A stretch of 64,000 bases of DNA from Laetmonice hystrix (Eukaryota). The position numbers and the translations under genes are program-made. The stretch is taken from the NCBI GenBank assembly GCA_965235115.1, contig OZ249436.1, positions 19,966,001 through 20,030,000 on the forward strand, written 5' to 3'. Positions within the stretch are counted from its first letter, which is position 1, and every line of letters begins with the position of its first letter. Below the pieces are notes generated by a model. That model was given only the letters and a program-made list of their open reading frames with translations. It was not told the origin of the DNA and did not search any database. Of the stretch, positions 1,531 through 63,728 are shown in pieces.

Positions 1531-4400
1531 TTATTACATGGAATGATACGAACATCTTTTACCATGTATAATTATACATGTTTTGTTGTTATTGATTTAG
1601 AAGCCAGACAATAAAGTATCGTTTATTATTGTTACCCACCATATATCGCAGTTCTTATGTGAAAGAATGTGTCAAACAGCAGCCAATATAAAGTAAATGT
1701 AGCCTATTATTAAGACAAACTCCCCCCCCCCCAAATGGGGGTATTTATAGACCCTTTCTGTGAATGATTATGCCACGGGTTTTTGAAAACCGGTCTGTAA
1801 TATCTTAATTGACCAACGGACTACCTCACTGTAGTGTTTGCATGGCTAGAAGGCCAGCCGATAAGATGTAGGGATTTCTCACTCTACTGAATGGCCTCCC
1901 ACACTGCTTGGCCCCACAGTGTATACTGTTTGGCCTCACTGTACTCTTTGGCCTCACTGTAGTGTTCGCTGGGGTGCTAGACCAGCCAGTATACCTCGTA
2001 GCGATTCCTCCCTGTACTGTTTGGCCTCCCTGTACCGTCTCCTTGTATACAAGACTAGCCAGTTGTATAGGAACGCCTCATGTTTCATGTTTCCATGCCT
2101 TTATTGTCCATGAGGCAGGCCATACTTTTCGTCTATCATCTACTCCCATGTAATCTGTGTCGCCTACAGACCATCTGTAAGCGTGCGACAACGTTGTCAG
2201 GTCGTCCCAATGACTGTTTGCCGTCAAGGTTTAGTTAACAACGGCAAATGACGCTGTACGCCTTTTCTATATCAGATATCCCATCCCCAAGTAACAAACA
2301 AACAAGCAAAGATGACACAGAGATGCTGCAGACAGAAAACACCAGGGCGGCGGCGGTGGCGTTGACTGCACTGCCGCCTTCCGGCCAGCGGTGGAATCAC
2401 CACGTACAGCTGGCCGGGATGGCGGGCACCTGTGGCTCTGAGGCGAGAGACAGGTTAAAGCAATGATAATCGAAAAATGGCTACATTTCTAATACGTCAA
2501 ATTGAAACTACGCCCCCCAAAATTATGATTCTTAGGCCAGATGTATAACTGCTGTCAAACGTATAGGTCTCGTACGTTCGCTACAGATAAATGGTTGTGA
2601 TCTGTACACTTTCCATTTGAGTATCTTCTTCAGATTTTAACATTAGATGCTCCTCGCCTGTACCTTTCATTTCCACTACCTCACTGTAGTGTTTGCATGG
2701 CTAGAAGGCCAGCCGGTAACATGTAGGAATTTCTCACTCTACTGAATGGCCTCCCACACTGCTTGGCCCCACAGTGTATACTGTTTGGCATCACTGTACT
2801 CTTTGGCCTCACTGTAGTGTTCGCTGGGGTGCTAGACCAGCCAGTATACCTCGTAGCGATTCCTCCCTATACTGTTTGGCCTCCCTGTACCGTCTGCTTG
2901 TATACAAGAGTAGCCAGTAGTATAGGGACGCCTCATGTTGCATGTTTCCATGCCTTTATTGTCCATGAGGCAGGTCATACCTTTCGTCTGTCATCTACTC
3001 CCATGTAATCTGTGTCGCCTACAGACCATCTGTAAGCGTCCGACAACGTTGTCAGGTCGTCCCAATGACTGTTTGCCGTCAAGGTTTAGTTAACAACGGC
3101 AAATGACGCTGTACGCCTTTTCTATATCAGATATCCCATCCCCAAGTAACAAACAAACAAGCAAAGATGACACAGAGATGCTGCAGACAGAAAACACCAG
3201 GGCGGCGGCGGTGGCGTTGACTGCACTGCCGCCTTCCGGCCAGCGGTGGAATCACCACGTACAGCTGGCCGGGATGGCGGGCACCTGTGGCTCTGAGGCG
3301 AGAGACAGGTTAAAGCAATGATAATCGAAAAATGGCTACATTTCTAATACGTCAAATTGAAACTACGCCCCCCAAAATTATGATTCTTAGGCCAGATGTA
3401 TAACTGCTGTCAAACGTATAGGTCCCGTACGTTCGCTACAGATAAATGGTTGTGATCTGTACACTTTCCATTTGAGTATCTTCTTCAGATTTTAACATTA
3501 GATGCTCCTCGCCTGTACCTTTCATTTCCACTACCTCACTGTAGTGTTTGCATGGCTAGAAGGCCAGCCGGTAACATGTAGGAATTTCTCACTCTACTGA
3601 ATGGCCTCCCACACTGCTTGGCCCCACAGTGTATACTGTTTGGCATCACTGTACTCTTTGGCCTCACTGTAGTGTTCGCTGGGGTGCTAGACCAGCCAGT
3701 ATACCTCGTAGCGATTCCTCCCTATACTGTTTGGCCTCCCTGTACCGTCTGCTTGTATACAAGAGTAGCCAGTAGTATAGGGACGCCTCATGTTTCATGT
3801 TTCCATGCCTTTATTGTCCATGAGGCAGGCCATACTTTTCGTCTATATCATCTACTCCCATGTAATCTGTGTCGCCTACAGACCATCTGTAAGCGTCCGA
3901 CAACGTTGTCAGGTCGTCCCAATGACTGTTTGCCGTCAAGGTTTAGTTAACAACGGCAAATGACGCTGAACGCCTTTTCTATATCAGATATCCCATCCCC
4001 AAGTAACAAACAAACAAGCAAAGATGACACAGAGATGCTGCAGACAGAAAACACCAGGGCGGCGGCGGTGGCGTTGACTGCACTGCCGCCTTCCGGCCAG
4101 CGGTGGAATCACCACGTACAGCTGGCCGGGATGGCGGGCACCTGTGGCTCTGAGGCGAGAGACAGGTTAAAGCAATGATAATCGAAAAATGGCTACATTT
4201 CTAATACGTCAAATTGAAACTACGCCCCCCAAAATTATGATTCTTAGGCCAGATGTATAACTGCTGTCAAACGTATAGGTCTCGTACGTTCGCTACAGAT
4301 AAATGGTTGTGATCTGTACACTTTCCATTTGAGTATCTTCTTCAGATTTTAACATTAGATGCTCCTCGCCTGTACCTTTCATTTCCACTACCTCACTGTA

Positions 4401-4552
4401 TTTTTCTTTTGAAATGCACGGGCATCAGGGGTAACCCAATTACTTTGACAATGTCCCTAAAGAGAAAAGTTGTATAGTCCTCTACAGGAATCGAACCCAG
4501 GCCCTAAGATTACTGCACCCATTCGCATAGCATAAGGTGTTGACATCCATGC
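4401..4552 (-). mobile_element. 152 bp 5'-truncated tRNA-derived (SINE-like) insertion in a satellite monomer
   Basis: Inserted at CCTCACTGTA|GTGTTTGC. Contains the B box (GGTTCGATTCC on the - strand) but not the A box. Matches 35321-35475. Confidence 0.85.
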
Positions 4553-7500
4553 GTGTTTGCATGGCTAGAAGGCCAGCCGGTAACATGTAGGAATTTCTCA
4601 CTCTACTGAATGGCCTCCCACACTGCTTGGCCCCACAGTGTATACTGTTTGGCATCACTGTACTCTTTGGCCTCACTGTAGTGTTCGCTGGGGTGCTAGA
4701 CCAGCCAGTATACCTCGTAGCGATTCCTCCCTATACTATTTGGCCTCCCTGTACCGTCTGCTTGTATACAAGAGTAGCCAGTAGTATAGGGACGCCTCAT
4801 GTTTCATGTTTCCATGCCTTTATTGTCCATGAGGCAGGCCATACTTTTCGTCTATATCATCTACTCCCATGTAATCTGTGTCGCCTACAGACCATCTGTA
4901 AGCGTCCGACAACGTTGTCAGGTCGTCCCAATGACTGTTTGCCGTCAAGGTTTAGTTAACAACGGCAAATGACGCTGAACGCCTTTTCTATATCAGATAT
5001 CCCATCCCCAAGTAACAAACAAACAAGCAAAGATGACACAGAGATGCTGCAGGCAGTAAACACCAGGGCGGCGGCGGTGGCGTTGACTGCACTGCCGCCT
5101 TCCGGCCAGCGGTGGAATCACCACGTACAGCTGGCCGGGATGGCGGGCACCTGTGGCTCTGAGGCGAGAGACAGGTTAAAGCAATGATAATCGAAAAATA
5201 GCTACATTTTTGATACGTCAAATTGAAACTACGCCCCCAAAAATTATGATTCTTAGGCCAGATGTTTAACTGTCAAACGTATAGGTCTCGTACGTTCGCT
5301 ACAGATAAATGGTTGTGATCTGTACACTTTCCATTTGAGTACCTTCTCCAGATTTCAACATTAGATGCTCCTCGCCTGTACCTTTCATTTCCACTACCTC
5401 ACTGTAATGTTTGCATGGCTAGAAGGCCAGCCGGTAAGATGTAGGGATTTCTTACTCTACTGAATGGCCTCCCACACTGCTTGGCTCCACAGTGTATACT
5501 GTTTGGCCTCACTGTACTCTTTGGCCTCACTGTAGTGTTCGCTGGGATGCTAGACCAGCCAGTATACCTCGTAGCGATTCCTCCCTGTACTGTTTGGCCT
5601 CCCTGTACCGTCTCCTTGTATACAAGAGTAGCCAGTTGTATAGGAACGCCTCATGTTTCATGTTTCCATGCCTTTATTGTCCATGAGGCAGGCCATACTT
5701 TTCGTCTATCATCTACTCCCATGTAATCTGTGTCGCCTACAGACCATCTATAAGCGTGCGACAACGTTGTCAGGTCGTCCCAATGACTGTTTGCCGTCAA
5801 GGTTTAGTTAACAACGGCAAATGACGCTGTACGCCTTTTCTATATCAGATATCCCATCCCCAAGTAACAAACAAACAAGCAAAGATGACACAGAGATGCT
5901 GCAGGCAGTAAACACCAGGGCGGCGGCGGTGGCGTTGACTGCACTGCCGCCTTCCGGCCAGCGGTGGAATCACCACGTACAGCTGGCCGGGATGGCGGGC
6001 ACCTGTGGCTCTGAGGCGAGAGACAGGTTAAAGCAATGATAATCGAAAAATGGCTACATTTTTGATACGTCAAATTGAAACTACGCCCCCCAAAATTATG
6101 ATTCTTAGGCCAGATGTTTAACTGTCAAACGTATAGGTCTCGTACGTTCGCTACAGATAAATGGTTGTGATCTGTACACTTTCCATTTGAGTACCTTCTC
6201 CAGATTTCAACATTAGATGCTCCTCGCCTGTACCTTTCATTTCCACTACCTCACTGTAATGTTTGCATGGCTAGAAGGCCAGCCGGTAAGATGTAGGGAT
6301 TTCTTACTCTACTGAATGGCCTCCCACACTGCTTGGCCCCACAGTGTATACTGTTTGGCCTCACTGTACTCTTTGGCCTCACTGTAGTGTTCGCTGGGAT
6401 GCTAGACCAGCCAGTATACCTCGTAGCGATTCCTCCCTGTACTGTTTGGCCTCCCTGTACCGTCTCCTTGTATACAAGAGTAGCCAGTTGTATAGGAACG
6501 CCTCATGTTTCATGTTTCCATGCCTTTATTGTCCATGAGGCAGGCCATACTTTTCGTCTATCATCTACTCCCATGTAATCTGTGTCGCCTACAGACCATC
6601 TGTAAGCGTGCGACAACGTTGTCAGGTCGTCCCAATGACTGTTTGCCGTCAAGGTTTAGTTAACAACGGCAAATGACGCTGTACGCCTTTTCTATATCAG
6701 ATATCCCATCCCCAAGTAACAAACAAACAAGCAAAGATGACACAGAGATGCTGCAGGCAGTAAACACCAGGGCGGCGGCGGTGGCGTTGACTGCACTGCC
6801 GCCTTCCGGCCAGCGGTGGAATCACCACGTACAGCTGGCCGGGATGGCGGGCACCTGTGGCTCTGAGGCGAGAGACAGGTTAAAGCAATGATAATCGAAA
6901 AAATGGCTACATTTTTGATACGTCAAATTGAAACTACGCCCCCCCAAATTATGATTCTTAGGCCAGATGTATAACTGTCAAACGTATAGGTCTCGTACGT
7001 TCGCTACAGATAAATGGTTGTGATCTGTACACTTTCCATTTGAGTACCTTATCCAGATTTTAACATTAGATGCTCCTCGCCTGTACCTTTCATTTCCACT
7101 ACCTCACTGTAGTGTTTGCATGGCTAGAAGGCCAGCCGGTAACATGTAGGAATTTCTCACTCTACTGAATGGCCTCCCACACTGCTTGGCCCCACAGTGT
7201 ATACTGTTTGGCATCACTGTACTCTTTGGCCTCACTGTAGTGTTCGCTGGGGTGCTAGACCAGCCAGTATACCTCGTAGCGATTCCTCCCTATACTGTTT
7301 GGCCTCCCTGTACCGTCTGCTTGTATACAAGAGTAGCCAGTAGTATAGGGACGCCTCATGTTTCATGTTTCCATGCCTTTATTGTCCATGAGGCAGGCCA
7401 TACTTTTCGTCTATCATCTACTCCCATGTAATCTGTGTCGCCTACAGACCATCTGTAAGCGTGCGACAACGTTGTCAGGTCGTCCCAATGACTGTTTGCC

Positions 7501-7966
7501 GTCAAGGTTTAGTTAACAACGGCAAATGACGCTGTACGCCTTTTCTATATCAGATATCCCATCCCCAAGTAACAAACAAACAAGCAAAGATGACACAGAG
7601 ATGCTGCAGGCAGTAAACACCAGGGCGGCGGCGGTGGCGTTGACTGCACTGCCGCCTTCCGGCCAGCGGTGGAATCACCACGTACAGCTGGCCGGGATGG
7701 CGGGCACCTGTGGCTCTGAGGCGAGAGACAGGTTAAAGCAATGATAATCGAAAAATGGCTACATTTCTAATACGTCAAATTGAAACTACGCCCCCCAAAA
7801 TTATGATTCTTAGGCCAGATGTATAACTGCTGTCAAACGTATAGGTCTCGTACGTTCGCTACAGATAAATGGTTGTGATCTGTACACTTTCCATTTGAGT
7901 ATCTTCTTCAGATTTTAACATTAGATGCTCCTCGCCTGTACCTTTCATTTCCACTACCTCACTGTA

Positions 7967-8923
7967 TTTTTCTTTTGAAATGCACGGGCATCAGGGGTAA
8001 CCCAATTACTTTGACAATGTCCCTAAAGAGAAAAGTTGTATAGTCCTCTACAGGAATCGAACCCCGGCCCTAAGATTACTGCACCCATTCGCATAGCATA
8101 AGGTGTCGACATCCATGCCTACTAGGCCACCGCCACTCCCCTATAAAAGGAGCTTTGGTGGTCGAGCAGGACAATGGACCCTCCCCCCTACACACATCTT
8201 TTTTAAATGAGACGGAATCCATATTTTCCTAGTTAGAGCTACACATGATTTCTACCGAACATTGACTGTTAAGGTAATCCTGGCACTGGCGTAGACTGTA
8301 TTTTTCTTTTGAAATGCACGGGCATCAGGGGTAACCCAATTACTTTGACAATGTCCCTAAAGAGAAAAGTTGTATAGTCCTCTACAGGAATCGAACCCCG
8401 GCCCTAAGATTACTGCACCCATTCGCATAGCATAAGGTGTCGACATCCATGCCTACTAGGCCACCGCCACTCCCCTATAAAAGGAGCTTTGGTGGTCGAG
8501 CAGGACAATGGACCCTCCCCCCTACACACATCTTTTTTAAATGAGACGGAATCCATATTTTCCTAGTTAGAGCTACACATGATTTCTACCGAACATTGAC
8601 TGTTAAGGTAATCCTGGCACTGGCGTAGACTGTATTTTTCTTTTGAAATGCACGGGCATCAGGGGTAACCCAATTACTTTGACAATGTCCCTAAAGAGAA
8701 AAGTTGTATAGTCCTCTACAGGAATCGAACCCCGGCCCTAAGATTACTGCACCCATTCGCATAGCATAAGGTGTCGACATCCATGCCTACTAGGCCACCG
8801 CCACTCCCCTATAAAAGGAGCTTTGGTGGTCGAGCAGGACAATGGACCCTCCCCCCTACACACATCTTTTTTAAATGAGACGGAATCCATATTTTCCTAG
8901 TTAGAGCTACACATGATTTCTAA
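7967..8923 (-). mobile_element. 957 bp insert: 2.87 tandem copies of a 334 bp unit carrying a tRNA-derived head
   Basis: Unit starts at 7967, 8301 and 8635 (period 334). The - strand has A box TGGCCTAGTAGG and B box GGTTCGATTCC. Inserted at CCTCACTGTA|GTGTTTGC. Confidence 0.9.
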
Positions 8924-11900
8924 GTGTTTGCATGGCTAGAAGGCCAGCCGGTAACATGTAGGAATTTCTCACTCTACTGAATGGCCTCCCACACTGCTTG
9001 GTCCCACAGTGTATACTGTTTGGCATCACTGTACTCTTTGGCCTCACTGTAGTGTTCGCTGGGGTGCTAGACCAGCCAGTATACCTCGTAGCGATTCCTC
9101 CCTATACTGTTTCGCCTCCCTGTACCGTCTGCTTGTATACAAGAGTAGCCAGTAGTAATAGGGACGCCTCATGTTTCATGTTTCCATGCCTTTATTGTCC
9201 ATGAGGCAGGCCATATCTTTCGTCTATCATCTACTCCCATGTAATCTGTGTCGCCTACAGACCATCTGTAAGCGTCCGACAACGTTGTCAGGTCGTCCCA
9301 ATGACTGTTTGCCGTCAAGGTTTAGTTAACAACGGCAAATGACGCTGTACGCCTTTTCTATATCAGATATCCCATCCCCAAGTAACAAACAAACAAGCAA
9401 AGATGACACAGAGATGCTGCAGGCAGTAAACACCAGGGCGGCGGCGGTGGCGTTGACTGCACTGCCGCCTTCCGACCAGCGGTGGAATCACCACGTACAG
9501 CTGGCCGGGATGGCGGGCACCTGTGGCTCTGAGGCGAGAGACAGGTTAAAGCAATGATCATCGAAAAATGGCTACATTTTTGATACGTCAAATTGAAACT
9601 ACGCCCCCAAAAATTATGATTCTTAGGCCAGATGTTTAACTGTCAAACGTATAGGTCTCGTACGTTAGCTACAGATAAATGGTTGTGATCTGTACACTTT
9701 CCATTTGAGTACCTTCTCCAGATTTCAACATTAGATGCTCCTCGCCTGTACCTTTCATTTCCATTACCTCACTGTAGTGTTTGCATGGCTAGAAGGCCAG
9801 CCGGTAAGATGTAGGGATTTCTTACTCTACTGAATGGCCTCCCACACTGCTTGGCCCCACAGTGTATACTGTTTGGCCTCTCTGCTCTTTGGCCTCACTG
9901 TAGTGTTCGCTGGGATGCTAGACCAGCCAGTATACCTCGTAGCGATTCCTCCCTGTACTGTTTGGCCTCCCTGTACCGTCTCCTTGTATACAAGAGTAGC
10001 CAGTTGTATAGGAACGCCTCATGTTTCATGTTTTCATGCCTTTATTGTCCATGAGGCAGGCCATACTTTTCGTCTATCATCTACTCCCATGTAATCTGTT
10101 TCGCCTACAGACCATCTGTAAGCGTCCGACAACGTTGTCAGGTCGTCCCAATGACTGTTTGCCGTCAAGGTTTAGTTAACAACGGCAAATGACGCTGTAC
10201 GCCTTTTCTATATCAGATATCCCACCCCCAAGTAACAAACAAACAAGCAAAGATGACACAGAGATGCTGCAGGCAGTAAACACCAGGGCGGCGGCGGTGG
10301 CGTTGACTGCACTGCCGCCTTCCGGCCAGCGGTGGAATCACCACCTACAGCTGGCCGGGATGGCGGGCACCTGTGGCTCTGAGGCGAGAGACAGGTTAAA
10401 GCAATGATCATCGAAAAATGTCTACATTTTTGATACGTCAAATTGAAACTACGCCCCCCAAAATTATGATTCTTAGGCCAGATGTATAACTGTCAAACGT
10501 ATAGGTCTCGTACGTTCGCTACAGATAAATGGTTGTGATCTGTACACTTTCCATTTGAGTATCTTCTCCAGATTTTAACATTAGATGCTCCTCGCCTGTA
10601 CCTTTCATTTCCACTACCTCACTGTAGTGTTTGCATGGCTAGAAGGCCAGCCGGTAAGATGTAGGGATTTCTCACTCTACTGAATGGCCTCCCACACTGC
10701 TTGGCCCCACAGTGTATACTGTTTGGCCTCACTGTACTCTTTGGCCTCACTGTAGTGTTCGCTGGGGTGCTAGACCAGCCAGTATACCTCGTAGCGATTC
10801 CTCCCTGTACTGTTTGGCCTCCCTGTACCGTCTGCTTGTATACAAGAGTAGCCAGTAGTATAGGGACGCCTCATGTTTCATGTTTCCATGCCTTTATTGT
10901 CAATGAGGCAGGCCATACCTTTCGTCTGTCATCTACTCCCATGTAATCTGTGTCGCCTACAGACCATCTGTAAGCGTCCGACAACGTTGTCAGGTCGCCC
11001 CAATGACTGTTTGCCGTCAAGGTTTAGTTAACAACGGCAAATGACGCTGTACGCCTTTTCTATATCAGATATCCCATCCCCAAGTAACAAACAAACAAGC
11101 AAAGATGACACAGAGATGCTGCAGGCAGAAAACACCAGGGCGGCGGCGGTGGCGTTGACTGCACTGCCGCCTTCCGGCCAGCGGTGGAATCACCACGTAC
11201 AGCTGGCCGGGATGGCGGGCACCTGTGGCTCTGAGGCGAGAGACAGGTTAAAGCAATGATAATCGAAAAATGGCTACATTTCTAATACGTCAAATTGAAA
11301 CTACGCCCCCCAAAATTATGATTCTTAGGCCAGATGTATAACTGCTGTCAAACGTATAGGTCTCGTACGTTCGCTACAGATAAATGGTTGTGATCTGTAC
11401 ACTTTCCATTTGAGTATCTTCTTCAGATTTTAACATTAGATGCTCCTCGCCTGTACCTTTCATTTCCACTACCTCACTGTAGTGTTTGCATGGCTAGAAG
11501 GCCAGCCGGTAACATGTAGGAATTTCTCACTCTACTGAATGGCCTCCCACACTGCTTGGCCCCACAGTGTATACTGTTTGGCATCACTGTACTCTTTGGC
11601 CTCACTGTAGTGTTCGCTGGGGTGCTAGACCAGCCAGTATACCTCGTAGCGATTCCTCCCTATACTGTTTGGCCTCCCTGTACCGTCTGCTTGTATACAA
11701 GAGTAGCCAGTAGTATAGGGACGCCTCATGTTTCATGTTTCCATGCCTTTATTGTCAATGAGGCAGGCCATACCTTTCGTCTGTCATCTACTCCCATGTA
11801 ATCTGTGTCGCCTACAGACCATCTGTAAGCGTCCGACAACGTTGTCAGGTCGCCCCAATGACTGTTTGCCGTCAAGGTTTAGTTAACAACGGCAAATGAC

Positions 11901-14900
11901 GCTGTACGCCTTTTCTATATCAGATATCCCATCCCCAAGTAACAAACAAACAAGCAAAGATGACACAGAGATGCTGCAGGCAGAAAACACCAGGGCGGCG
12001 GCGGTGGCGTTGACTGCACTGCCGCCTTCCGGCCAGCGGTGGAATCACCACGTACAGCTGGCCGGGATGGCGGGCACCTGTGGCTCTGAGGCGAGAGACA
12101 GGTTAAAGCAATGATCATCGAAAAATGGCTACATTTTTGATACGTCAAATTGAAACTACGCCCCCAAAATTATGATTCTTAGGCCAGATGTTTAACTGTC
12201 AAACGTATAGGTCTCGTACGTTAGCTACAGATAAATGGTTGTGATCTGTACACTTTCCATTTGAGTACCTTCTCCAGATTTCAACATTAGATGCTCCTCG
12301 CCTGTACCTTTCATTTCCACTACCTCACTGTAGTGTTTGCATGGCTAGAAGGCCAGCCGGTAAGATGTAGGGATTTCTTACTCTACTGAATGGCCTCCCA
12401 CACTGCTTGGCCCCACAGTGTATACTGTTTGGCCTCACTGCTCTTTGGCCTCACTGTAGTGTTCGCTGGGATGCTAGACCAGCCAGTATACCTCGTAGCG
12501 ATTCCTCCCTGTACTGTTTGGCCTCCCTGTACCGTCTCCTTGTATACAAGAGTAGCCAGTAGTAATAGGGACGCCTCATGTTTCATGTTTCCATGCCTTT
12601 ATTGTCCATGAGGCAGGCCATATCTTTCGTCTATCATCTACTCCCATGTAATCTGTGTCGCCTACAGACCATCTGTAAGCGTCCGACAACGTTGTCAGGT
12701 CGTCCCAATGACTGTTTGCCGTCAAGGTTTAGTTAACAACGGCAAATGACGCTGTACGCCTTTTCTATATCAGATATCCCATCCCCAAGTAACAAACAAA
12801 CAAGCAAAGATGACACAGAGATGCTGCAGGCAGTAAACACCAGGGCGGCGGCGGTGGCGTTGACTGCACTGCCGCCTTCCGACCAGCGGTGGAATCACCA
12901 CGTACAGCTGGCCGGGATGGCGGGCACCTGTGGCTCTGAGGCGAGAGACAGGTTAAAGCAATGATCATCGAAAAATGGCTACATTTTTGATACGTCAAAT
13001 TGAAACTACGCCCCCAAAAATTATGATTCTTAGGCCAGATGTTTAACTGTCAAACGTATAGGTCTCGTACGTTAGCTACAGATAAATGGTTGTGATCTGT
13101 ACACTTTCCATTTGAGTACCTTCTCCAGATTTCAACATTAGATGCTCCTCGCCTGTACCTTTCATTTCCATTACCTCACTGTAGTGTTTGCATGGCTAGA
13201 AGGCCAGCCGGTAAGATGTAGGGATTTCTTACTCTACTGAATGGCCTCCCACACTGCTTGGCCCCACAGTGTATACTGTTTGGCCTCTCTGCTCTTTGGC
13301 CTCACTGTAGTGTTCGCTGGGATGCTAGACCAGCCAGTATACCTCGTAGCGATTCCTCCCTGTACTGTTTGGCCTCCCTGTACCGTCTCCTTGTATACAA
13401 GAGTAGCCAGTTGTATAGGAACGCCTCATGTTTCATGTTTTCATGCCTTTATTGTCCATGAGGCAGGCCATACTTTTCGTCTATCATCTACTCCCATGTA
13501 ATCTGTTTCGCCTACAGACCATCTGTAAGCGTCCGACAACGTTGTCAGGTCGTCCCAATGACTGTTTGCCGTCAAGGTTTAGTTAACAACGGCAAATGAC
13601 GCTGTACGCCTTTTCTATATCAGATATCCCACCCCCAAGTAACAAACAAACAAGCAAAGATGACACAGAGATGCTGCAGGCAGTAAACACCAGGGCGGCG
13701 GCGGTGGCGTTGACTGCACTGCCGCCTTCCGGCCAGCGGTGGAATCACCACCTACAGCTGGCCGGGATGGCGGGCACCTGTGGCTCTGAGGCGAGAGACA
13801 GGTTAAAGCAATGATCATCGAAAAATGTCTACATTTTTGATACGTCAAATTGAAACTACGCCCCCCAAAATTATGATTCTTAGGCCAGATGTATAACTGT
13901 CAAACGTATAGGTCTCGTACGTTCGCTACAGATAAATGGTTGTGATCTGTACACTTTCCATTTGAGTATCTTCTCCAGATTTTAACATTAGATGCTCCTC
14001 GCCTGTACCTTTCATTTCCACTACCTCACTGTAGTGTTTGCATGGCTAGAAGGCCAGCCGGTAAGATGTAGGGATTTCTCACTCTACTGAATGGCCTCCC
14101 ACACTGCTTGGCCCCACAGTGTATACTGTTTGGCCTCACTGTACTCTTTGGCCTCACTGTAGTGTTCGCTGGGGTGCTAGACCAGCCAGTATACCTCGTA
14201 GCGATTCCTCCCTGTACTGTTTGGCCTCCCTGTACCGTCTGCTTGTATACAAGAGTAGCCAGTAGTATAGGGACGCCTCATGTTTCATGTTTCCATGCCT
14301 TTATTGTCAATGAGGCAGGCCATACCTTTCGTCTGTCATCTACTCCCATGTAATCTGTGTCGCCTACAGACCATCTGTAAGCGTCCGACAACGTTGTCAG
14401 GTCGCCCCAATGACTGTTTGCCGTCAAGGTTTAGTTAACAACGGCAAATGACGCTGTACGCCTTTTCTATATCAGATATCCCATCCCCAAGTAACAAACA
14501 AACAAGCAAAGATGACACAGAGATGCTGCAGGCAGAAAACACCAGGGCGGCGGCGGTGGCGTTGACTGCACTGCCGCCTTCCGGCCAGCGGTGGAATCAC
14601 CACGTACAGCTGGCCGGGATGGCGGGCACCTGTGGCTCTGAGGCGAGAGACAGGTTAAAGCAATGATAATCGAAAAATGGCTACATTTCTAATACGTCAA
14701 ATTGAAACTACGCCCCCCAAAATTATGATTCTTAGGCCAGATGTATAACTGCTGTCAAACGTATAGGTCTCGTACGTTCGCTACAGATAAATGGTTGTGA
14801 TCTGTACACTTTCCATTTGAGTATCTTCTTCAGATTTTAACATTAGATGCTCCTCGCCTGTACCTTTCATTTCCACTACCTCACTGTAGTGTTTGCATGG

Positions 14901-17444
14901 CTAGAAGGCCAGCCGGTAACATGTAGGAATTTCTCACTCTACTGAATGGCCTCCCACACTGCTTGGCCCCACAGTGTATACTGTTTGGCATCACTGTACT
15001 CTTTGGCCTCACTGTAGTGTTCGCTGGGGTGCTAGACCAGCCAGTATACCTCGTAGCGATTCCTCCCTATACTGTTTGGCCTCCCTGTACCGTCTGCTTG
15101 TATACAAGAGTAGCCAGTAGTATAGGGACGCCTCATGTTTCATGTTTCCATGCCTTTATTGTCAATGAGGCAGGCCATACCTTTCGTCTGTCATCTACTC
15201 CCATGTAATCTGTGTCGCCTACAGACCATCTGTAAGCGTCCGACAACGTTGTCAGGTCGCCCCAATGACTGTTTGCCGTCAAGGTTTAGTTAACAACGGC
15301 AAATGACGCTGTACGCCTTTTCTATATCAGATATCCCATCCCCAAGTAACAAACAAACAAGCAAAGATGACACAGAGATGCTGCAGGCAGAAAACACCAG
15401 GGCGGCGGCGGTGGCGTTGACTGCACTGCCGCCTTCCGGCCAGCGGTGGAATCACCACGTACAGCTGGCCGGGATGGCGGGCACCTGTGGCTCTGAGGCG
15501 AGAGACAGGTTAAAGCAATGATCATCGAAAAATGGCTACATTTTTGATACGTCAAATTGAAACTACGCCCCCAAAATTATGATTCTTAGGCCAGATGTTT
15601 AACTGTCAAACGTATAGGTCTCGTACGTTAGCTACAGATAAATGGTTGTGATCTGTACACTTTCCATTTGAGTACCTTCTCCAGATTTCAACATTAGATG
15701 CTCCTCGCCTGTACCTTTCATTTCCACTACCTCACTGTAGTGTTTGCATGGCTAGAAGGCCAGCCGGTAAGATGTAGGGATTTCTTACTCTACTGAATGG
15801 CCTCCCACACTGCTTGGCCCCACAGTGTATACTGTTTGGCCTCACTGCTCTTTGGCCTCACTGTAGTGTTCGCTGGGATGCTAGACCAGCCAGTATACCT
15901 CGTAGCGATTCCTCCCTGTACTGTTTGGCCTCCCTGTACCGTCTCCTTGTATACAAGAGTAGCCAGTTGTATAGGAACGCCTCATGTTTCATGTTTTCAT
16001 GCCTTTATTGTCCATGAGGCAGGCCATACTTTTCGTCTATCATCTACTCCCATGTAATCTGTTTCGCCTACAGACCATCTGTAAGCGTCCGACAACGTTG
16101 TCAGGTCGTCCCAATGACTGTTTGCCGTCAAGGTTTAGTTAACAACGGCAAATGACGCTGTACGCCTTTTCTATATCAGATATCCCATCCCCAAGTAACA
16201 AACAAACAAGCAAAGATGACACAGAGATGCTGCAGGCAGTAAACACCAGGGCGGCGGCGGTGGCGTTGACTGCACTGCCGCCTTCCGGCCAGCGGTGGAA
16301 TCACCACCTACAGCTGGCCGGGATGGCGGGCACCTGTGGCTCTGAGGCGAGAGACAGGTTAAAGCAATGATAATCGAAAAATGGCTACATTTTTGATACG
16401 TCAAATTGAAACTACGCCCCCAAAAATTATGATTCTTAGGCCAGATGTATAACTGTCAAACGTATAGGTCTCGTACGTTCGCTACAGATAAATGGTTGTG
16501 ATCTGTACACTTTCCATTTGAGTATCTTCTCCAGATTTTAACATTAGATGCTCCTCGCCTGTACCTTTCATTTCCACTACCTCACTGTAGTGTTTGCATG
16601 GCTAGAAGGCCAGCCGGTAAGATGTAGGGATTTCTCACTCTACTGAATGGCCTCCCACACTGCTTGGCCCCACAGTGTATACTGTTTGGCATCACTGTAC
16701 TCTTTGGCCTCACTGTAGTGTTCGCTGGGGTGCTAGACCAGCCAGTATACCTCGTAGCGATTCCTCCCTATACTGTTTGGCCTCCCTGTACCGTCTGCTT
16801 GTATACAAGAGTAGCCAGTAGTATAGGGACGCCTCATGTTTCATGTTTCCATGCCTTTATTGTCCATGAGGCAGGCCATACTTTTCGTCTATCATCTACT
16901 CCCATGTAATCTGTGTCGCCTACAGACCATCTGTAAGCGTGCGACAACGTTGTCAGGTCGTCCCAATGACTGTTTGCCGTCAAGGTTTAGTTAACAACGG
17001 CAAATGACGCTGTACGCCTTTTCTATATCAGATATCCCATCCCCAAGTAACAAACAAACAAGCAAAGATGACACAGAGATGCTGCAGGCAGTAAACACCA
17101 GGGCGGCGGCGGTGGCGTTGACTGCACTGCCGCCTTCCGGCCAGCGGTGGAATCACCACGTACAGCTGGCCGGGATGGCGGGCACCTGTGGCTCTGAGGC
17201 GAGAGACAGGTTAAAGCAATGATAATCGAAAAATGGCTACATTTCTAATACGTCAAATTGAAACTACGCCCCCCAAAATTATGATTCTTAGGCCAGATGT
17301 ATAACTGCTGTCAAACGTATAGGTCTCGTACGTTCGCTACAGATAAATGGTTGTGATCTGTACACTTTCCATTTGAGTATCTTCTTCAGATTTTAACATT
17401 AGATGCTCCTCGCCTGTACCTTTCATTTCCACTACCTCACTGTA

Positions 17445-18401
17445 TTTTTCTTTTGAAATGCACGGGCATCAGGGGTAACCCAATTACTTTGACAATGTCC
17501 CTAAAGAGAAAAGTTGTATAGTCCTCTACAGGAATCGAACCCCGGCCCTAAGATTACTGCACCCATTCGCATAGCATAAGGTGTCGACATCCATGCCTAC
17601 TAGGCCACCGCCACTCCCCTATAAAAGGAGCTTTGGTGGTCGAGCAGGACAATGGACCCTCCCCCCTACACACATCTTTTTTAAATGAGACGGAATCCAT
17701 ATTTTCCTAGTTAGAGCTACACATGATTTCTACCGAACATTGACTGTTAAGGTAATCCTGGCACTGGCGTAGACTGTATTTTTCTTTTGAAATGCACGGG
17801 CATCAGGGGTAACCCAATTACTTTGACAATGTCCCTAAAGAGAAAAGTTGTATAGTCCTCTACAGGAATCGAACCCCGGCCCTAAGATTACTGCACCCAT
17901 TCGCATAGCATAAGGTGTCGACATCCATGCCTACTAGGCCACCGCCACTCCCCTATAAAAGGAGCTTTGGTGGTCGAGCAGGACAATGGACCCTCCCCCC
18001 TACACACATCTTTTTTAAATGAGACGGAATCCATATTTTCCTAGTTAGAGCTACACATGATTTCTACCGAACATTGACTGTTAAGGTAATCCTGGCACTG
18101 GCGTAGACTGTATTTTTCTTTTGAAATGCACGGGCATCAGGGGTAACCCAATTACTTTGACAATGTCCCTAAAGAGAAAAGTTGTATAGTCCTCTACAGG
18201 AATCGAACCCCGGCCCTAAGATTACTGCACCCATTCGCATAGCATAAGGTGTCGACATCCATGCCTACTAGGCCACCGCCACTCCCCTATAAAAGGAGCT
18301 TTGGTGGTCGAGCAGGACAATGGACCCTCCCCCCTACACACATCTTTTTTAAATGAGACGGAATCCATATTTTCCTAGTTAGAGCTACACATGATTTCTA
18401 A
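17445..18401 (-). mobile_element. 957 bp insert of the 334 bp tRNA-derived unit (second HOR copy)
   Basis: Same sequence as 7967-8923 at +9478. Confidence 0.9.
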
Positions 18402-21400
18402 GTGTTTGCATGGCTAGAAGGCCAGCCGGTAACATGTAGGAATTTCTCACTCTACTGAATGGCCTCCCACACTGCTTGGTCCCACAGTGTATACTGTTTG
18501 GCATCACTGTACTCTTTGGCCTCACTGTAGTGTTCGCTGGGGTGCTAGACCAGCCAGTATACCTCGTAGCGATTCCTCCCTATACTGTTTCGCCTCCCTG
18601 TACCGTCTGCTTGTATACAAGAGTAGCCAGTAGTAATAGGGACGCCTCATGTTTCATGTTTCCATGCCTTTATTGTCCATGAGGCAGGCCATATCTTTCG
18701 TCTATCATCTACTCCCATGTAATCTGTGTCGCCTACAGACCATCTGTAAGCGTCCGACAACGTTGTCAGGTCGTCCCAATGACTGTTTGCCGTCAAGGTT
18801 TAGTTAACAACGGCAAATGACGCTGTACGCCTTTTCTATATCAGATATCCCATCCCCAAGTAACAAACAAACAAGCAAAGATGACACAGAGATGCTGCAG
18901 GCAGTAAACACCAGGGCGGCGGCGGTGGCGTTGACTGCACTGCCGCCTTCCGACCAGCGGTGGAATCACCACGTACAGCTGGCCGGGATGGCGGGCACCT
19001 GTGGCTCTGAGGCGAGAGACAGGTTAAAGCAATGATCATCGAAAAATGGCTACATTTTTGATACGTCAAATTGAAACTACGCCCCCAAAAATTATGATTC
19101 TTAGGCCAGATGTTTAACTGTCAAACGTATAGGTCTCGTACGTTAGCTACAGATAAATGGTTGTGATCTGTACACTTTCCATTTGAGTACCTTCTCCAGA
19201 TTTCAACATTAGATGCTCCTCGCCTGTACCTTTCATTTCCACTACCTCACTGTAGTGTTTGCATGGCTAGAAGGCCAGCCGGTAAGATGTAGGGATTTCT
19301 TACTCTACTGAATGGCCTCCCACACTGCTTGGCCCCACAGTGTATACTGTTTGGCCTCTCTGCTCTTTGGCCTCACTGTAGTGTTCGCTGGGATGCTAGA
19401 CCAGCCAGTATACCTCGTAGCGATTCCTCCCTGTACTGTTTGGCCTCCCTGTACCGTCTCCTTGTATACAAGAGTAGCCAGTTGTATAGGAACGCCTCAT
19501 GTTTCATGTTTTCATGCCTTTATTGTCCATGAGGCAGGCCATACTTTTCGTCTATCATCTACTCCCATGTAATCTGTTTCGCCTACAGACCATCTGTAAG
19601 CGTCCGACAACGTTGTCAGGTCGTCCCAATGACTGTTTGCCGTCAAGGTTTAGTTAACAACGGCAAATGACGCTGTACGCCTTTTCTATATCAGATATCC
19701 CATCCCCAAGTAACAAACAAACAAGCAAAGATGACACAGAGATGCTGCAGGCAGTAAACACCAGGGCGGCGGCGGTGGCGTTGACTGCACTGCCGCCTTC
19801 CGGCCAGCGGTGGAATCACCACCTACAGCTGGCCGGGATGGCGGGCACCTGTGGCTCTGAGGCGAGAGACAGGTTAAAGCAATGATAATCGAAAAATGTC
19901 TACATTTTTGATAAGTCAAATTGAAACTACGCCCCCCAAAATTATGATTCTTAGGCCAGATGTATAACTGTCAAACGTATAGGTCTCGTACGTTCGCTAC
20001 AGATAAATGGTTGTGATCTGTACACTTTCCATTTGAGTATCTTCTCCAGATTTTAACATTAGATGCTCCTCGCCTGTACCTTTCATTTCCACTACCTCAC
20101 TGTAGTGTTTGCATGGCTAGAAGGCCAGCCGGTAAGATGTAGGGATTTCTCACTCTACTGAATGGCCTCCCACACTGCTTGGCCCCACAGTGTATACTGT
20201 TTGGCCTCACTGTACTCTTTGGCCTCACTGTAGTGTTCGCTGGGGTGCTAGACCAGCCAGTATACCTCGTAGCGATTCCTCCCTGTACTGTTTGGCCTCC
20301 CTGTACCGTCTGCTTGTATACAAGAGTAGCCAGTAGTATAGGGACGCCTCATGTTTCATGTTTCCATGCCTTTATTGTCAATGAGGCAGGCCATACCTTT
20401 CGTCTGTCATCTACTCCCATGTAATCTGTGTCGCCTACAGACCATCTGTAAGCGTCCGACAACGTTGTCAGGTCGCCCCAATGACTGTTTGCCGTCAAGG
20501 TTTAGTTAACAACGGCAAATGACGCTGTACGCCTTTTCTATATCAGATATCCCATCCCCAAGTAACAAACAAACAAGCAAAGATGACACAGAGATGCTGC
20601 AGGCAGAAAACACCAGGGCGGCGGCGGTGGCGTTGACTGCACTGCCGCCTTCCGGCCAGCGGTGGAATCACCACGTACAGCTGGCCGGGATGGCGGGCAC
20701 CTGTGGCTCTGAGGCGAGAGACAGGTTAAAGCAATGATAATCGAAAAATGGCTACATTTCTAATACGTCAAATTGAAACTACGCCCCCCAAAATTATGAT
20801 TCTTAGGCCAGATGTATAACTGCTGTCAAACGTATAGGTCTCGTACGTTCGCTACAGATAAATGGTTGTGATCTGTACACTTTCCATTTGAGTATCTTCT
20901 TCAGATTTTAACATTAGATGCTCCTCGCCTGTACCTTTCATTTCCACTACCTCACTGTAGTGTTTGCATGGCTAGAAGGCCAGCCGGTAACATGTAGGAA
21001 TTTCTCACTCTACTGAATGGCCTCCCACACTGCTTGGCCCCACAGTGTATACTGTTTGGCATCACTGTACTCTTTGGCCTCACTGTAGTGTTCGCTGGGG
21101 TGCTAGACCAGCCAGTATACCTCGTAGCGATTCCTCCCTATACTGTTTGGCCTCCCTGTACCGTCTGCTTGTATACAAGAGTAGCCAGTAGTATAGGGAC
21201 GCCTCATGTTTCATGTTTCCATGCCTTTATTGTCAATGAGGCAGGCCATACCTTTCGTCTGTCATCTACTCCCATGTAATCTGTGTCGCCTACAGACCAT
21301 CTGTAAGCGTCCGACAACGTTGTCAGGTCGCCCCAATGACTGTTTGCCGTCAAGGTTTAGTTAACAACGGCAAATGACGCTGTACGCCTTTTCTATATCA

Positions 21401-24400
21401 GATATCCCATCCCCAAGTAACAAACAAACAAGCAAAGATGACACAGAGATGCTGCAGGCAGAAAACACCAGGGCGGCGGCGGTGGCGTTGACTGCACTGC
21501 CGCCTTCCGGCCAGCGGTGGAATCACCACGTACAGCTGGCCGGGATGGCGGGCACCTGTGGCTCTGAGGCGAGAGACAGGTTAAAGCAATGATCATCGAA
21601 AAATGGCTACATTTTTGATACGTCAAATTGAAACTACGCCCCCAAAATTATGATTCTTAGGCCAGATGTTTAACTGTCAAACGTATAGGTCTCGTACGTT
21701 AGCTACAGATAAATGGTTGTGATCTGTACACTTTCCATTTGAGTACCTTCTCCAGATTTCAACATTAGATGCTCCTCGCCTGTACCTTTCATTTCCACTA
21801 CCTCACTGTAGTGTTTGCATGGCTAGAAGGCCAGCCGGTAAGATGTAGGGATTTCTTACTCTACTGAATGGCCTCCCACACTGCTTGGCCCCACAGTGTA
21901 TACTGTTTGGCCTCACTGCTCTTTGGCCTCACTGTAGTGTTCGCTGGGATGCTAGACCAGCCAGTATACCTCGTAGCGATTCCTCCCTGTACTGTTTGGC
22001 CTCCCTGTACCGTCTCCTTGTATACAAGAGTAGCCAGTAGTAATAGGGACGCCTCATGTTTCATGTTTCCATGCCTTTATTGTCCATGAGGCAGGCCATA
22101 TCTTTCGTCTATCATCTACTCCCATGTAATCTGTGTCGCCTACAGACCATCTGTAAGCGTCCGACAACGTTGTCAGGTCGTCCCAATGACTGTTTGCCGT
22201 CAAGGTTTAGTTAACAACGGCAAATGACGCTGTACGCCTTTTCTATATCAGATATCCCATCCCCAAGTAACAAACAAACAAGCAAAGATGACACAGAGAT
22301 GCTGCAGGCAGTAAACACCAGGGCGGCGGCGGTGGCGTTGACTGCACTGCCGCCTTCCGACCAGCGGTGGAATCACCACGTACAGCTGGCCGGGATGGCG
22401 GGCACCTGTGGCTCTGAGGCGAGAGACAGGTTAAAGCAATGATCATCGAAAAATGGCTACATTTTTGATACGTCAAATTGAAACTACGCCCCCAAAAATT
22501 ATGATTCTTAGGCCAGATGTTTAACTGTCAAACGTATAGGTCTCGTACGTTAGCTACAGATAAATGGTTGTGATCTGTACACTTTCCATTTGAGTACCTT
22601 CTCCAGATTTCAACATTAGATGCTCCTCGCCTGTACCTTTCATTTCCATTACCTCACTGTAGTGTTTGCATGGCTAGAAGGCCAGCCGGTAAGATGTAGG
22701 GATTTCTTACTCTACTGAATGGCCTCCCACACTGCTTGGCCCCACAGTGTATACTGTTTGGCCTCTCTGCTCTTTGGCCTCACTGTAGTGTTCGCTGGGA
22801 TGCTAGACCAGCCAGTATACCTCGTAGCGATTCCTCCCTGTACTGTTTGGCCTCCCTGTACCGTCTCCTTGTATACAAGAGTAGCCAGTTGTATAGGAAC
22901 GCCTCATGTTTCATGTTTTCATGCCTTTATTGTCCATGAGGCAGGCCATACTTTTCGTCTATCATCTACTCCCATGTAATCTGTTTCGCCTACAGACCAT
23001 CTGTAAGCGTCCGACAACGTTGTCAGGTCGTCCCAATGACTGTTTGCCGTCAAGGTTTAGTTAACAACGGCAAATGACGCTGTACGCCTTTTCTATATCA
23101 GATATCCCACCCCCAAGTAACAAACAAACAAGCAAAGATGACACAGAGATGCTGCAGGCAGTAAACACCAGGGCGGCGGCGGTGGCGTTGACTGCACTGC
23201 CGCCTTCCGGCCAGCGGTGGAATCACCACCTACAGCTGGCCGGGATGGCGGGCACCTGTGGCTCTGAGGCGAGAGACAGGTTAAAGCAATGATCATCGAA
23301 AAATGTCTACATTTTTGATACGTCAAATTGAAACTACGCCCCCCAAAATTATGATTCTTAGGCCAGATGTATAACTGTCAAACGTATAGGTCTCGTACGT
23401 TCGCTACAGATAAATGGTTGTGATCTGTACACTTTCCATTTGAGTATCTTCTCCAGATTTTAACATTAGATGCTCCTCGCCTGTACCTTTCATTTCCACT
23501 ACCTCACTGTAGTGTTTGCATGGCTAGAAGGCCAGCCGGTAAGATGTAGGGATTTCTCACTCTACTGAATGGCCTCCCACACTGCTTGGCCCCACAGTGT
23601 ATACTGTTTGGCCTCACTGTACTCTTTGGCCTCACTGTAGTGTTCGCTGGGGTGCTAGACCAGCCAGTATACCTCGTAGCGATTCCTCCCTGTACTGTTT
23701 GGCCTCCCTGTACCGTCTGCTTGTATACAAGAGTAGCCAGTAGTATAGGGACGCCTCATGTTTCATGTTTCCATGCCTTTATTGTCAATGAGGCAGGCCA
23801 TACCTTTCGTCTGTCATCTACTCCCATGTAATCTGTGTCGCCTACAGACCATCTGTAAGCGTCCGACAACGTTGTCAGGTCGCCCCAATGACTGTTTGCC
23901 GTCAAGGTTTAGTTAACAACGGCAAATGACGCTGTACGCCTTTTCTATATCAGATATCCCATCCCCAAGTAACAAACAAACAAGCAAAGATGACACAGAG
24001 ATGCTGCAGGCAGAAAACACCAGGGCGGCGGCGGTGGCGTTGACTGCACTGCCGCCTTCCGGCCAGCGGTGGAATCACCACGTACAGCTGGCCGGGATGG
24101 CGGGCACCTGTGGCTCTGAGGCGAGAGACAGGTTAAAGCAATGATAATCGAAAAATGGCTACATTTCTAATACGTCAAATTGAAACTACGCCCCCCAAAA
24201 TTATGATTCTTAGGCCAGATGTATAACTGCTGTCAAACGTATAGGTCTCGTACGTTCGCTACAGATAAATGGTTGTGATCTGTACACTTTCCATTTGAGT
24301 ATCTTCTTCAGATTTTAACATTAGATGCTCCTCGCCTGTACCTTTCATTTCCACTACCTCACTGTAGTGTTTGCATGGCTAGAAGGCCAGCCGGTAACAT

Positions 24401-26922: not shown

Positions 26923-27879
26923 TTTTTCTTTTGAAATGCACGGGCATCAGGGGTAACCCAATTACTTTGACAATGTCCCTAAAGAGAAAAGTTGTATAGT
27001 CCTCTACAGGAATCGAACCCCGGCCCTAAGATTACTGCACCCATTCGCATAGCATAAGGTGTCGACATCCATGCCTACTAGGCCACCGCCACTCCCCTAT
27101 AAAAGGAGCTTTGGTGGTCGAGCAGGACAATGGACCCTCCCCCCTACACACATCTTTTTTAAATGAGACGGAATCCATATTTTCCTAGTTAGAGCTACAC
27201 ATGATTTCTACCGAACATTGACTGTTAAGGTAATCCTGGCACTGGCGTAGACTGTATTTTTCTTTTGAAATGCACGGGCATCAGGGGTAACCCAATTACT
27301 TTGACAATGTCCCTAAAGAGAAAAGTTGTATAGTCCTCTACAGGAATCGAACCCCGGCCCTAAGATTACTGCACCCATTCGCATAGCATAAGGTGTCGAC
27401 ATCCATGCCTACTAGGCCACCGCCACTCCCCTATAAAAGGAGCTTTGGTGGTCGAGCAGGACAATGGACCCTCCCCCCTACACACATCTTTTTTAAATGA
27501 GACGGAATCCATATTTTCCTAGTTAGAGCTACACATGATTTCTACCGAACATTGACTGTTAAGGTAATCCTGGCACTGGCGTAGACTGTATTTTTCTTTT
27601 GAAATGCACGGGCATCAGGGGTAACCCAATTACTTTGACAATGTCCCTAAAGAGAAAAGTTGTATAGTCCTCTACAGGAATCGAACCCCGGCCCTAAGAT
27701 TACTGCACCCATTCGCATAGCATAAGGTGTCGACATCCATGCCTACTAGGCCACCGCCACTCCCCTATAAAAGGAGCTTTGGTGGTCGAGCAGGACAATG
27801 GACCCTCCCCCCTACACACATCTTTTTTAAATGAGACGGAATCCATATTTTCCTAGTTAGAGCTACACATGATTTCTAA
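26923..27879 (-). mobile_element. 957 bp insert of the 334 bp tRNA-derived unit (third HOR copy)
   Basis: Same sequence as 7967-8923 at +18956. Confidence 0.9.
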
Positions 27880-33899: not shown

Positions 33900-33901
33900 G
33901 T

Positions 33902-34352
33902 TGTACGCCTTTCCTATATCAGATATCCCATCCCCAAGTAAAACAAAATTACAGAGATGTTGCAGGCAACCGCCAGGGTACTGCGGCTACGACTGCGCTG
34001 CTACCTTCCGGCTACCGGTGGAATCACCACGTATATCTGGCCGGGCTGGCAGGCACCTGTGGCTCAGAGGCGAGAGACAGGTTAATACAATGGTAATCGA
34101 AAAATGGCTACATTTTTGATACGTCAAATTGAAACTACGCTCCCAAAATTATGATTCTTAGGCCAGATGTATAACTCTCAAACCTATAGATCTTCTACAT
34201 CTCGTACGTTCGCTACAGATAAATGGTTGTGATATGTATACTTCCTATTTGAGTATCTTCTCCACATTTTAACATTAGATGCTCCTCGCCCGACCTTTCA
34301 TTTCCACTACCTCGCTGTACTATTTACATGGCTACTATAATCGGCCATCGGT
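33902..34352. repeat. Diverged single partial copy of the satellite monomer (second half plus junction), candidate progenitor or relic
   Basis: Colinear with the monomer from TGTACGCCTT through CACTACCTC and CATGGCTA, with far more substitutions and indels than any array copy. Confidence 0.85.
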
Positions 34353-34464
34353 GGTCGAGCAGGACAATGGACCCTCCCCCCTACACACATCTTCCGAAAT
34401 GAGACGAAATCCATATTTTCCTAGATAGAGCTACACATGAGTTCTACCGAACATTGACTGTTAA

Positions 34465-35288: not shown

Positions 35289-35292
35289 TTAA

Positions 35293-35516
35293 GGTAATCC
35301 TGGCACGTGGCGTAGACTGTATTTTTCTTTTTTGAAATGCACGGGCATCAGGGGTAACCCAATTACTTTGACAATGTCCCTAAAGAGAAAAGTTGTATAG
35401 TCCTCTACAGGAATCGAACCCCGGCCCCAAGATTACTGCACCCATTCGCATAGCATAAGGTGTCGACACCCATGCCCACTCGGCCACCGCCACTCCCCTA
35501 AAAAAGGAGCTTTGGT
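35293..35516 (-). mobile_element. Solo tRNA-derived SINE-like or pseudo-tRNA element
   Basis: A box TGGCCGAGTGG (35476-35486) and B box GGTTCGATTCC (35410-35420) on the - strand. The acceptor stem cannot form, so this is not a functional tRNA. Confidence 0.7.
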
Positions 35517-63593: not shown

Positions 63594-63728
63594 CTGCAAC
63601 AAGCGAAGAGAATAAGAAATTCATGGAGGTACTTTTAAACATAACACAACTGTTATCAATCTTTGACATACACGTACATCGCACTAATTGTCCATAGATC
63701 AGTGTATTTATCTGGATATCTCTTGCTA

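Follow-up and report, generated by a model that had tools for sequence, protein, structure and literature searches.

How do two inserts of unequal length come to begin at exactly the same nucleotide of a satellite monomer? The question is raised by a 64,000-nt stretch of the Laetmonice hystrix genome (GenBank assembly GCA_965235115.1, contig OZ249436.1, positions 19,966,001 to 20,030,000 of the forward strand; hereafter the window, with positions counted from its first letter), in which a young tandem array with a monomer of about 853 bp is host to pieces of another repeat with a unit of 334 bp. The window is animal-type DNA, with intron-split genes and a phosphatase exon near 63.4-63.8 kb (Pfam matches in flanking open reading frames, ORFs). 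We propose that the inserts were probably templated by RNA, through target-primed reverse transcription of a multimeric transcript by borrowed and probably Penelope-like enzymes. The 334-bp unit would then be a non-autonomous tandem retroposon, which on balance we think it is.

Anatomy and sites of the insertions

An earlier note on this DNA had placed both inserts at the same nucleotide of the monomer, and the junctions bear this out: CCTCACTGTA precedes both (ending at 4400 and 7966), and the satellite picks up again at GTGTTTGC (4553 and 8924). The first base of each insert corresponds to position 7 of the 334-bp unit, the first letters are TTTTTC, and the unit's own bases before that point are AGACTGTA. 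ACTGTA is common to donor and target, as had also been claimed; this amounts to 5-6 nt of homology at the fixed end, and the motif stands in a single copy at empty sites. At the far end the letters differ (CATGC versus TTCTA). Read on the minus strand, which carries the B box, the inserts share their 3' end, the A-rich side, and vary in 5' extent, again in agreement with the original description. The short insert (152 bp, unit positions 7-158) has a blunt joint to the satellite. In the long insert (957 bp), agreement with the unit stops after 956 bp, at 8922 (unit position 294), and A8923, which lies outside the unit sequence, was either added without a template or duplicated from the target (1 bp). 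The claim that no target sequence was duplicated holds strictly for the short insert but not for the long one, where the extra A is a possible 1-bp duplication.

The long insert is present in three letter-identical copies (starting at 7967, 17445 and 26923) within a 9,478-bp higher-order repeat, and because they are letter-identical within this repeat we count them as one event that was later amplified. The first two copies of the higher-order repeat show 6 differences, and the inserts together occupy four of the 33 monomer junctions of the array. The region from 7112 to 33583 is built of monomer types A, B and C, the 9,478-bp unit consisting of ten monomers plus the long insert, with a shorter third copy. 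The near-identity of the higher-order copies reflects either a very recent duplication or over-expansion in the assembly.

The 853-bp monomer offers eight plus-strand CTGTA sites, three of which are ACTGTA, and three CTGTA sites on the minus strand. The chance that two events fall on one site is about 1/3 with ACTGTA as the requirement and 1/11 with CTGTA alone. What departs from chance is the donor end that both inserts have in common, and the coincidence in target nucleotide carries less weight than first sight suggests. Runs listed as containing this DNA number 13, among them marine metagenomes and none recorded as RNA, which says nothing for or against transcription. Further junctions come from contigs of four of these runs (X1, X4, X6 and X8) aligned to 8589-9776, with 15 of 43 joints and 24 of 662 loose ends seen. 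Among the joints listed, one in X1 (8785 to 9034) falls on the base after the second ACTGTA site of the monomer and another in X1 (8787 to 9045) lies at the third; among the loose ends listed, one X8 contig has the C of CTGTA (8630) joined to foreign sequence of 255 bases. Each of the three distinct kinds of 3' junction observed has 5-6 nt common to donor and target. Target duplication is 0-1 bp in the window, and one X1 joint could imply a duplication of 7 bp. The specificity looks like that of a CTGTA motif combined with a start fixed by the donor, not of one special nucleotide. The proposal of site-specific insertion into the satellite is weakened accordingly: both window events used one site, but in the X1 and X8 contigs CTGTA elsewhere seems to have served as well. 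With respect to the long unique target of R2-type elements, we find one site in both window events and other CTGTA sites in single X1 and X8 contigs.

Mobility is conceivable for the 853-bp repeat as well. The start of its array is abrupt and lies only 14 bases upstream of the insertion site, an observation that bears on such mobility. In the run contigs it is high-copy with variants about 10% diverged, and two X8 contigs link it to foreign flanks with ACTGT(A), at 9165 and 9698. Its predicted fold beats shuffled sequences (z -3.75, 0/20), a z value that internal repeats may inflate. A hammerhead core on the monomer minus strand (CTGAAGA...GAAA, found in 1.1% of 2000 shuffles) was rejected: it is without stems, and most monomers have CTGGAGA instead.

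The 334-bp unit as donor

Judged by its sequence, the 334-bp unit is a high-copy, head-to-tail, apparently non-coding repeat with a putative tRNA-like promoter and no detectable ribozyme. In X1, 65,291 contigs match the aligned stretch (unit and monomer together), although contig depth is not a copy number. The joint that leads back from 8922 to 8589, diagnostic of tandem units, occurs in all four runs, and X4 and X6 each have one contig of 364 nt, the length of a 334-nt unit with a 30-letter overlap added, which an array or a circle would give. Within the window the repeat has a period of 334 bp and 2.9 copies, which fits the 150-400-bp head-to-tail format of retrozymes. As in a short interspersed element (SINE), internal A and B boxes for RNA polymerase III (Pol III) lie on the strand with the fixed 3' end, the B box being exact and the A-box-like motif (unit 161-172) standing upstream of it, both judged against what we take to be the consensus. 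The minus strand is A-rich at the fixed junction, and variants in the length of the T run occur in X1.

Searches for a parent gene or a ribozyme were negative within their scope. ARAGORN at default settings found no tRNA in the unit. An intron-bearing tRNA-Ile called under relaxed settings was dismissed as unspecific, since a tRNA-Val was called on the other strand and three tRNAs on the monomer. The match of a 19-mer around the B box to two phage tRNA-Arg genes reflects T-arm-like sequence only, not parentage. Rfam returned no ribozyme in the unit at E up to 10. A scan for the hammerhead core with one mismatch allowed gave only CTGATGC...GAAA, without stem I or stem II pairing (descriptor without a positive control), and our own descriptor for ribozymes like that of hepatitis delta virus (HDV), also without a positive control, had 0 matches on both strands, in line with Rfam. 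An unusually stable or rod-like fold of the whole unit was discarded, its fold being no better than that of shuffles (z -0.99 and -0.35). A 20-mer from the unit had 0 matches in metagenome contigs, whereas matches of a monomer 20-mer (2) and a unit 18-mer (27) in bacterial genomes are due to chance, as all 29 loci extend over at most 22 exact-seeded bases (blastn). A protein search on a flanking exon returned nothing, and a Pfam scan of seven flanking ORFs detected neither a reverse transcriptase nor a GIY-YIG domain (7 of the 20 long ORFs of 33.5-64 kb, one of the seven from the left flank and none inside the array).

Four far (5') ends are seen, at unit 157/158, 158, 159 and 294, and three of the four fall within 3 nt (P = 0.0007 under uniform independent truncation, though common descent is possible). 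The ends at 157-159 fall within the unit's strongest hairpin (151-219; z -2.1, 5/200 shuffles), 7-9 nt in from its base. Pair probabilities are near 1 for 158-163 and 167-171, and a polymerase coming from the fixed end would encounter the most stable part of the hairpin there. Because the far arm of the hairpin is upstream of the A box, the template presumably reached past a plain Pol III monomer, either as a read-through multimer or as a circle. The suggestion that the 2.87-mer needed a concatemeric or circular template is thus supported. RNA circles are not required: since the unit stands head-to-tail in all four runs, multimeric templates exist without them and read-through transcripts of several units would be enough, and the scans gave no hammerhead or HDV-like motif.

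An older copy of the unit, set 30 bases into a diverged monomer of the 853-bp family, is permuted. Its two parts make up exactly one unit, from 197 round to 199, plus a 3-nt redundancy (GGT at both ends), and it keeps the arms of the hairpin (duplex -27.3 versus -24.8 kcal/mol). One turn with a 3-nt redundancy is expected from a monomeric circle or from an RNA cut there, which, as a single case, is a hint of such a template; the copy is also compatible with the capture of a DNA circle. The 824-bp insert that splits it is non-coding, and we take it to be Kolobok-like from its features.

Table 1. Positions of the inserts, their host array, the reference unit and the older copy in the window
Feature	Position	Strand	Remarks
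Target end CCTCACTGTA, 5' of the short insert	4391..4400	+	ACTGTA common to donor
Short insert, 152 bp	4401..4552	-	unit positions 7-158; blunt joint to satellite
Long insert, 957 bp	7967..8923	-	956 bp of perfect head-to-tail 334-bp units and one extra A at 8923
Long insert, copy 2	17445..18401	-	from higher-order duplication
Long insert, copy 3	26923..27879	-	from higher-order duplication
Young tandem array, ~853-bp monomer	1820..33583	.	insert host; 34 monomer starts, 97-100% alike
One complete 334-bp unit	8295..8628	-	numbering reference (unit 1 = 8295)
Pol III B box GGTTCGATTCC	8387..8397	-	such a motif in 1/2000 shuffles
A-box-like motif TGGCCTAGTAGG	8455..8466	-	54 nt upstream of B box; older copy has TGGCCGAGTGG
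Strongest hairpin of the unit	8445..8513	-	unit 151-219; recurrent 5' ends 157-159 at base
Older diverged piece of 853-bp family	33902..34349	.	83.5% identical; holds permuted unit
Older permuted unit copy, part 1	34350..34464	-	unit 197-312, 94%
DNA-transposon-like insert, 824 bp	34465..35288	.	duplicated TTAA and short terminal inverted repeats; splits older copy
Older permuted unit copy, part 2	35289..35516	-	unit 309-334 then 1-199, 96.5%

Explanations of the inserts

Whether the two lengths record two insertions or one can be judged from linked variants. The short and the long insert differ at unit 105 (4499, A for C) and at unit 147 (4541). Every unit of the long insert has C at unit 105, and the A of the short insert is a family allele, which at position 8733 is carried by 59 contigs with about 45% of the depth in X1, by most of the depth in X8 and by the only contig of X6 and of X4. 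The upstream flanking monomers of the two inserts differ at 6 positions and the downstream ones at 14, against 0-2 among the higher-order copies. Because the family allele is confined to the short insert, no rare allele common to the flanks of both inserts was found, and neither was microhomology for a deletion converting the long insert into the short, we take two independent insertion events to be the best account, which agrees with the earlier note and answers the possibility it had raised that the short form is a deletion derivative. A single ancestral insertion, with the 152-bp form derived from the 957-bp allele by deletion or conversion or with both forms going back to an older junction, is in our view largely refuted already and most improbable. 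Satellites do readily convert and delete, and both inserts lie in the same class of monomer junction (11 of the 33), but such a deletion would have to stop exactly at the old junction and drop the extra A, and the length difference (957 - 152 = 805) is not a multiple of 334. Nor do we find it likely that the 152-nt form represents a separate short subfamily, an ordinary SINE with its own 5' end beside which the long insert is a rare multimer, so that the cluster at 157-159 is inherited and not a stop site. Three junctions ending within 3 nt would be expected of it, and in X8 (58 million letters, of a kind not recorded), whose depth profile differs from that of X1, unit 1-160 is covered several-fold more deeply than the spacer (a weak point, as contig depth cannot rank parts, that we do not count as expression); however, a 152-nt monomer would be without the better A box, and the three ends are 1-2 nt apart and stand in different targets. 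We give this account very little credence.

The main rival to RNA templating is templated DNA repair or circle capture, in which a break in the satellite invades a 334-bp array or an extrachromosomal circle through ACTGTA, copies a variable length and rejoins, with no RNA involved. Donor arrays are plentiful as DNA, homology of 5-6 nt at one junction with none at the other and no target-site duplication (TSD) are what such repair would leave, and a hairpin in the nascent strand could likewise end DNA-templated synthesis. The older copy, a full unit that opens at 197-199 and repeats 3 nt, resembles a crossover with a monomeric circle. The same account has to place a break directly behind ACTGTA on two occasions without the loss of a single base, and does not predict that the donor end is fixed even beside an unrelated flank (one X8 contig) or that the fixed end is the A-rich 3' end of the promoter strand. 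We therefore hold it unlikely, if far from negligible. Rolling-circle transposition by an HUH enzyme, of the Helitron, Helentron or Replitron kind, would nick at ACTGTA in donor and target, which would account for one constant end, for concatemers formed by read-through and for a far end that varies. Little or no TSD, tandem copies and a motif shared by donor and target 5' of the nick all suit it, as does the fact that Un12 and Un3 yield variable TSDs upstream of RG. Helitrons and Helentrons insert at A|T or T|T targets and have TC...CTRR ends or subterminal inverted repeats. Here the junctions are A|G (window) and A|C (X1), the insert starts with TTTTTC, the four far ends have neither CTRR nor another common motif, no subterminal inverted repeats lie near the ends, and a Pol III promoter aimed at the fixed end is left unexplained. 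A rolling-circle origin thus appears quite improbable.

Under the RNA-templated mechanism that we favor, we infer an RNA template, a nick 3' of CTGTA, priming through 5-6 nt of homology and stalling at the hairpin. Read-through transcription of head-to-tail arrays would give multimeric, possibly circular, minus-strand RNA. A borrowed endonuclease and reverse transcriptase, most likely Penelope-like and otherwise of an R2-type long interspersed element (LINE), would nick just 3' of CTGTA, and the freed DNA 3' end, to go by the junctions, would pair with UACAG(U) in the RNA and prime cDNA at a fixed internal point. Synthesis would then halt variably, with a preference for the base of the hairpin (unit 157-159), or proceed through several units, and the process may end with the cDNA joined bluntly or with one added base, the two kinds of joint seen in the window. 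The 853-bp satellite would be the preferred sink because it has three ACTGTA sites per monomer, and unequal exchange may afterwards have produced the triplication of the long insert. The earlier note had called the junctions an established signature of target-primed reverse transcription; the fixed end, the 5' truncation and the microhomology are real, but "established" goes too far, since templated repair from arrays leaves like junctions.

In the available text of the cited studies, the reverse transcriptase of Penelope-like elements (PLEs) begins inside the RNA without a need for ribozyme cleavage (PMC11167929), non-autonomous PLE partners form multicopy head-to-tail inserts and some PLE clades are without hammerheads (PMC8557442), and PLE inserts without a TSD occur (PMC3846280). 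We favor a PLE as the driver for these reasons, namely a start inside unprocessed RNA, head-to-tail inserts of partners and insertion without a TSD. Like the inserts of such partners, those described here are partial tandems with a fixed 3' end and 5' truncation. An R2-type LINE, whose partners have constant 3' junctions and untemplated bases at their 5' junctions (PMC3414825), is the other candidate driver.

Several observations weigh against the RNA-templated mechanism or parts of it. The older copy starts at unit 197 and not at CTGTA, an exception to the rule of a fixed start. The extra junctions each come from single contigs with a short side of 24-26 letters and 85% likeness, in an internally repetitive monomer, and may have been misplaced or go back to a common ancestor. 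The hairpin exceeds shuffles by a modest margin and was chosen post hoc among five segments, and two runs of four T on the unit minus strand could stop Pol III. By blastn the unit has no further match in the window, and no LINE match was found there. The junction class common to both window events mildly favors a shared history. Finally, in the available text on PAc, the only PLE studied in vitro, the start site is not homologous to the cut DNA and cutting is AT-rich (PMC11167929). Initiation without homology to the cut DNA is not what we see, as 5-6 nt are common to both, although one in-vitro precedent makes a weak rule for a family.

The rest of the window and relation to known elements

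Other features of the window lie outside the inserts. Between the young array and the older monomer, 33584-33901 is a 318-bp insert with a 31-bp inverted repeat (33664-33694 and 33869-33899) and GGTTAG-like short repeats, which by its features is presumably of the non-autonomous Helentron type. A young 117-bp tandem repeat (53737-54716, 8.3 copies) has a unit that starts with CACTGTA and no blastn similarity to the 334-bp or 853-bp units. Two intron-split genes with CCCH zinc-finger exons (Pfam) lie within 38000-46000, and their similar last exons (about 40530-40700 and 45770-45935) suggest that they may be tandem paralogues. Serine/threonine phosphatase exons on the minus strand (62880-63780, Pfam Metallophos match) belong to what we assume to be a PP1-type enzyme, and a GGGA/GGCA microsatellite of about 420 bp occupies 57676-58099.

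Comparison with known systems is drawn from the available parts of the sources cited. The closest likeness is to Sm-alpha and Sj-alpha of schistosomes, which are about 335 bp long, non-coding, tandem and high-copy, with a tRNA-related Pol III promoter and multimeric transcripts (PMC6765202, PMC2770079, PMC8490949). Sm-alpha, unlike the 334-bp unit, has an active type I hammerhead, and those accounts, as far as available, do not describe CTGTA-type priming or a satellite sink for it. Metazoan non-LTR (long terminal repeat) retrozymes likewise have head-to-tail units of 150-400 bp, insertions from monomer to multimer and a proposed dependence on PLEs (PMC7229834; bioRxiv 10.64898/2026.07.22.740005), but they carry a type I hammerhead, are expressed as circles and have TSDs, if present, of more than 4 bp, whereas the 334-bp unit has no hammerhead, a 0-1-bp duplication and a B box. 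The PLE partners MRC1 and Chlamys-N and the hammerhead-less Naiad and Chlamys PLEs resemble it in head-to-tail multicopy inserts, 5' truncation, bias to a short motif and the lack of a canonical hammerhead; they differ in that microsatellites are their reported targets and that the partners have 3' ends in common with an autonomous PLE, and the available text reports no tRNA-like head for them (PMC8557442; bioRxiv 10.1101/2022.05.23.493040). The Poseidon PLE PAc begins reverse transcription in vitro at a constant position inside a multimeric RNA, with no cut by a ribozyme, as we envisage here, but it prefers ATT and a non-homologous start, in contrast to CTGTA with 5-6 nt in common (PMC11167929). 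R2 and the short internally deleted elements (SIDEs) of R2 and R1 offer a parallel in a constant 3' junction, a 5' end that is blunt or has untemplated bases and a repeat-array target, the SIDEs being non-autonomous as well. SIDEs, however, use one long 28S rDNA target, have an HDV-like ribozyme and originate by internal deletion, whereas the unit shows a short motif, no ribozyme and concatemers without spacer duplications (PMC3414825). Squamate SINE-derived satellites also consist of tandem repeats of SINE sequence, although fixed-end mobile multimers are not reported in the available account of them (PMC10702118).

The 334-bp unit works like Sm-alpha and the animal retrozymes but lacks the hammerhead that defines them, and we do not class it as a member; it looks like a ribozyme-less variation on their theme. 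In the literature searched, which took in few subscription papers or Repbase reports, we found no description of a tandem element that has a tRNA head but no ribozyme, is driven by a PLE and targets a short motif. A more far-reaching version of our proposal is that the unit is a ribozyme-free analogue of a retrozyme: its Pol III-driven, tRNA-headed 334-nt RNA would be cut by host enzymes at the long hairpin into unit-length circles, of which the one-turn copy opened at 197-199 would be a footprint, and Penelope-like machinery would copy these repeatedly with CTGTA-homology priming, the 853-bp repeat, itself possibly mobile, being the preferred landing pad. We offer this version as speculation and think it rather unlikely.

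The mode of insertion of tandem non-coding retroposons, animal retrozymes among them, has so far been largely inferred, and the mobilization of retrozymes is, according to the available text of a 2026 preprint, still to be characterized (bioRxiv 10.64898/2026.07.22.740005). A high-copy family in a homogeneous array places empty and filled sites side by side, so that the junctions give a direct reading of priming homology, nick position, untemplated additions and reverse transcription stops. Were a PLE the driver, priming at CTGTA with the help of homology would depart from the sole PLE examined in vitro, and the family would demonstrate insertion of multimers without a ribozyme. Should the ribozyme-free circles be real, the locus would hold a natural in vivo record of PLE priming and reverse transcription stalling, and would point to a second route to circular retro-RNAs in animals. 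In addition, the array illustrates clearly how a mobile element feeds a satellite and is then amplified with it in a higher-order repeat.

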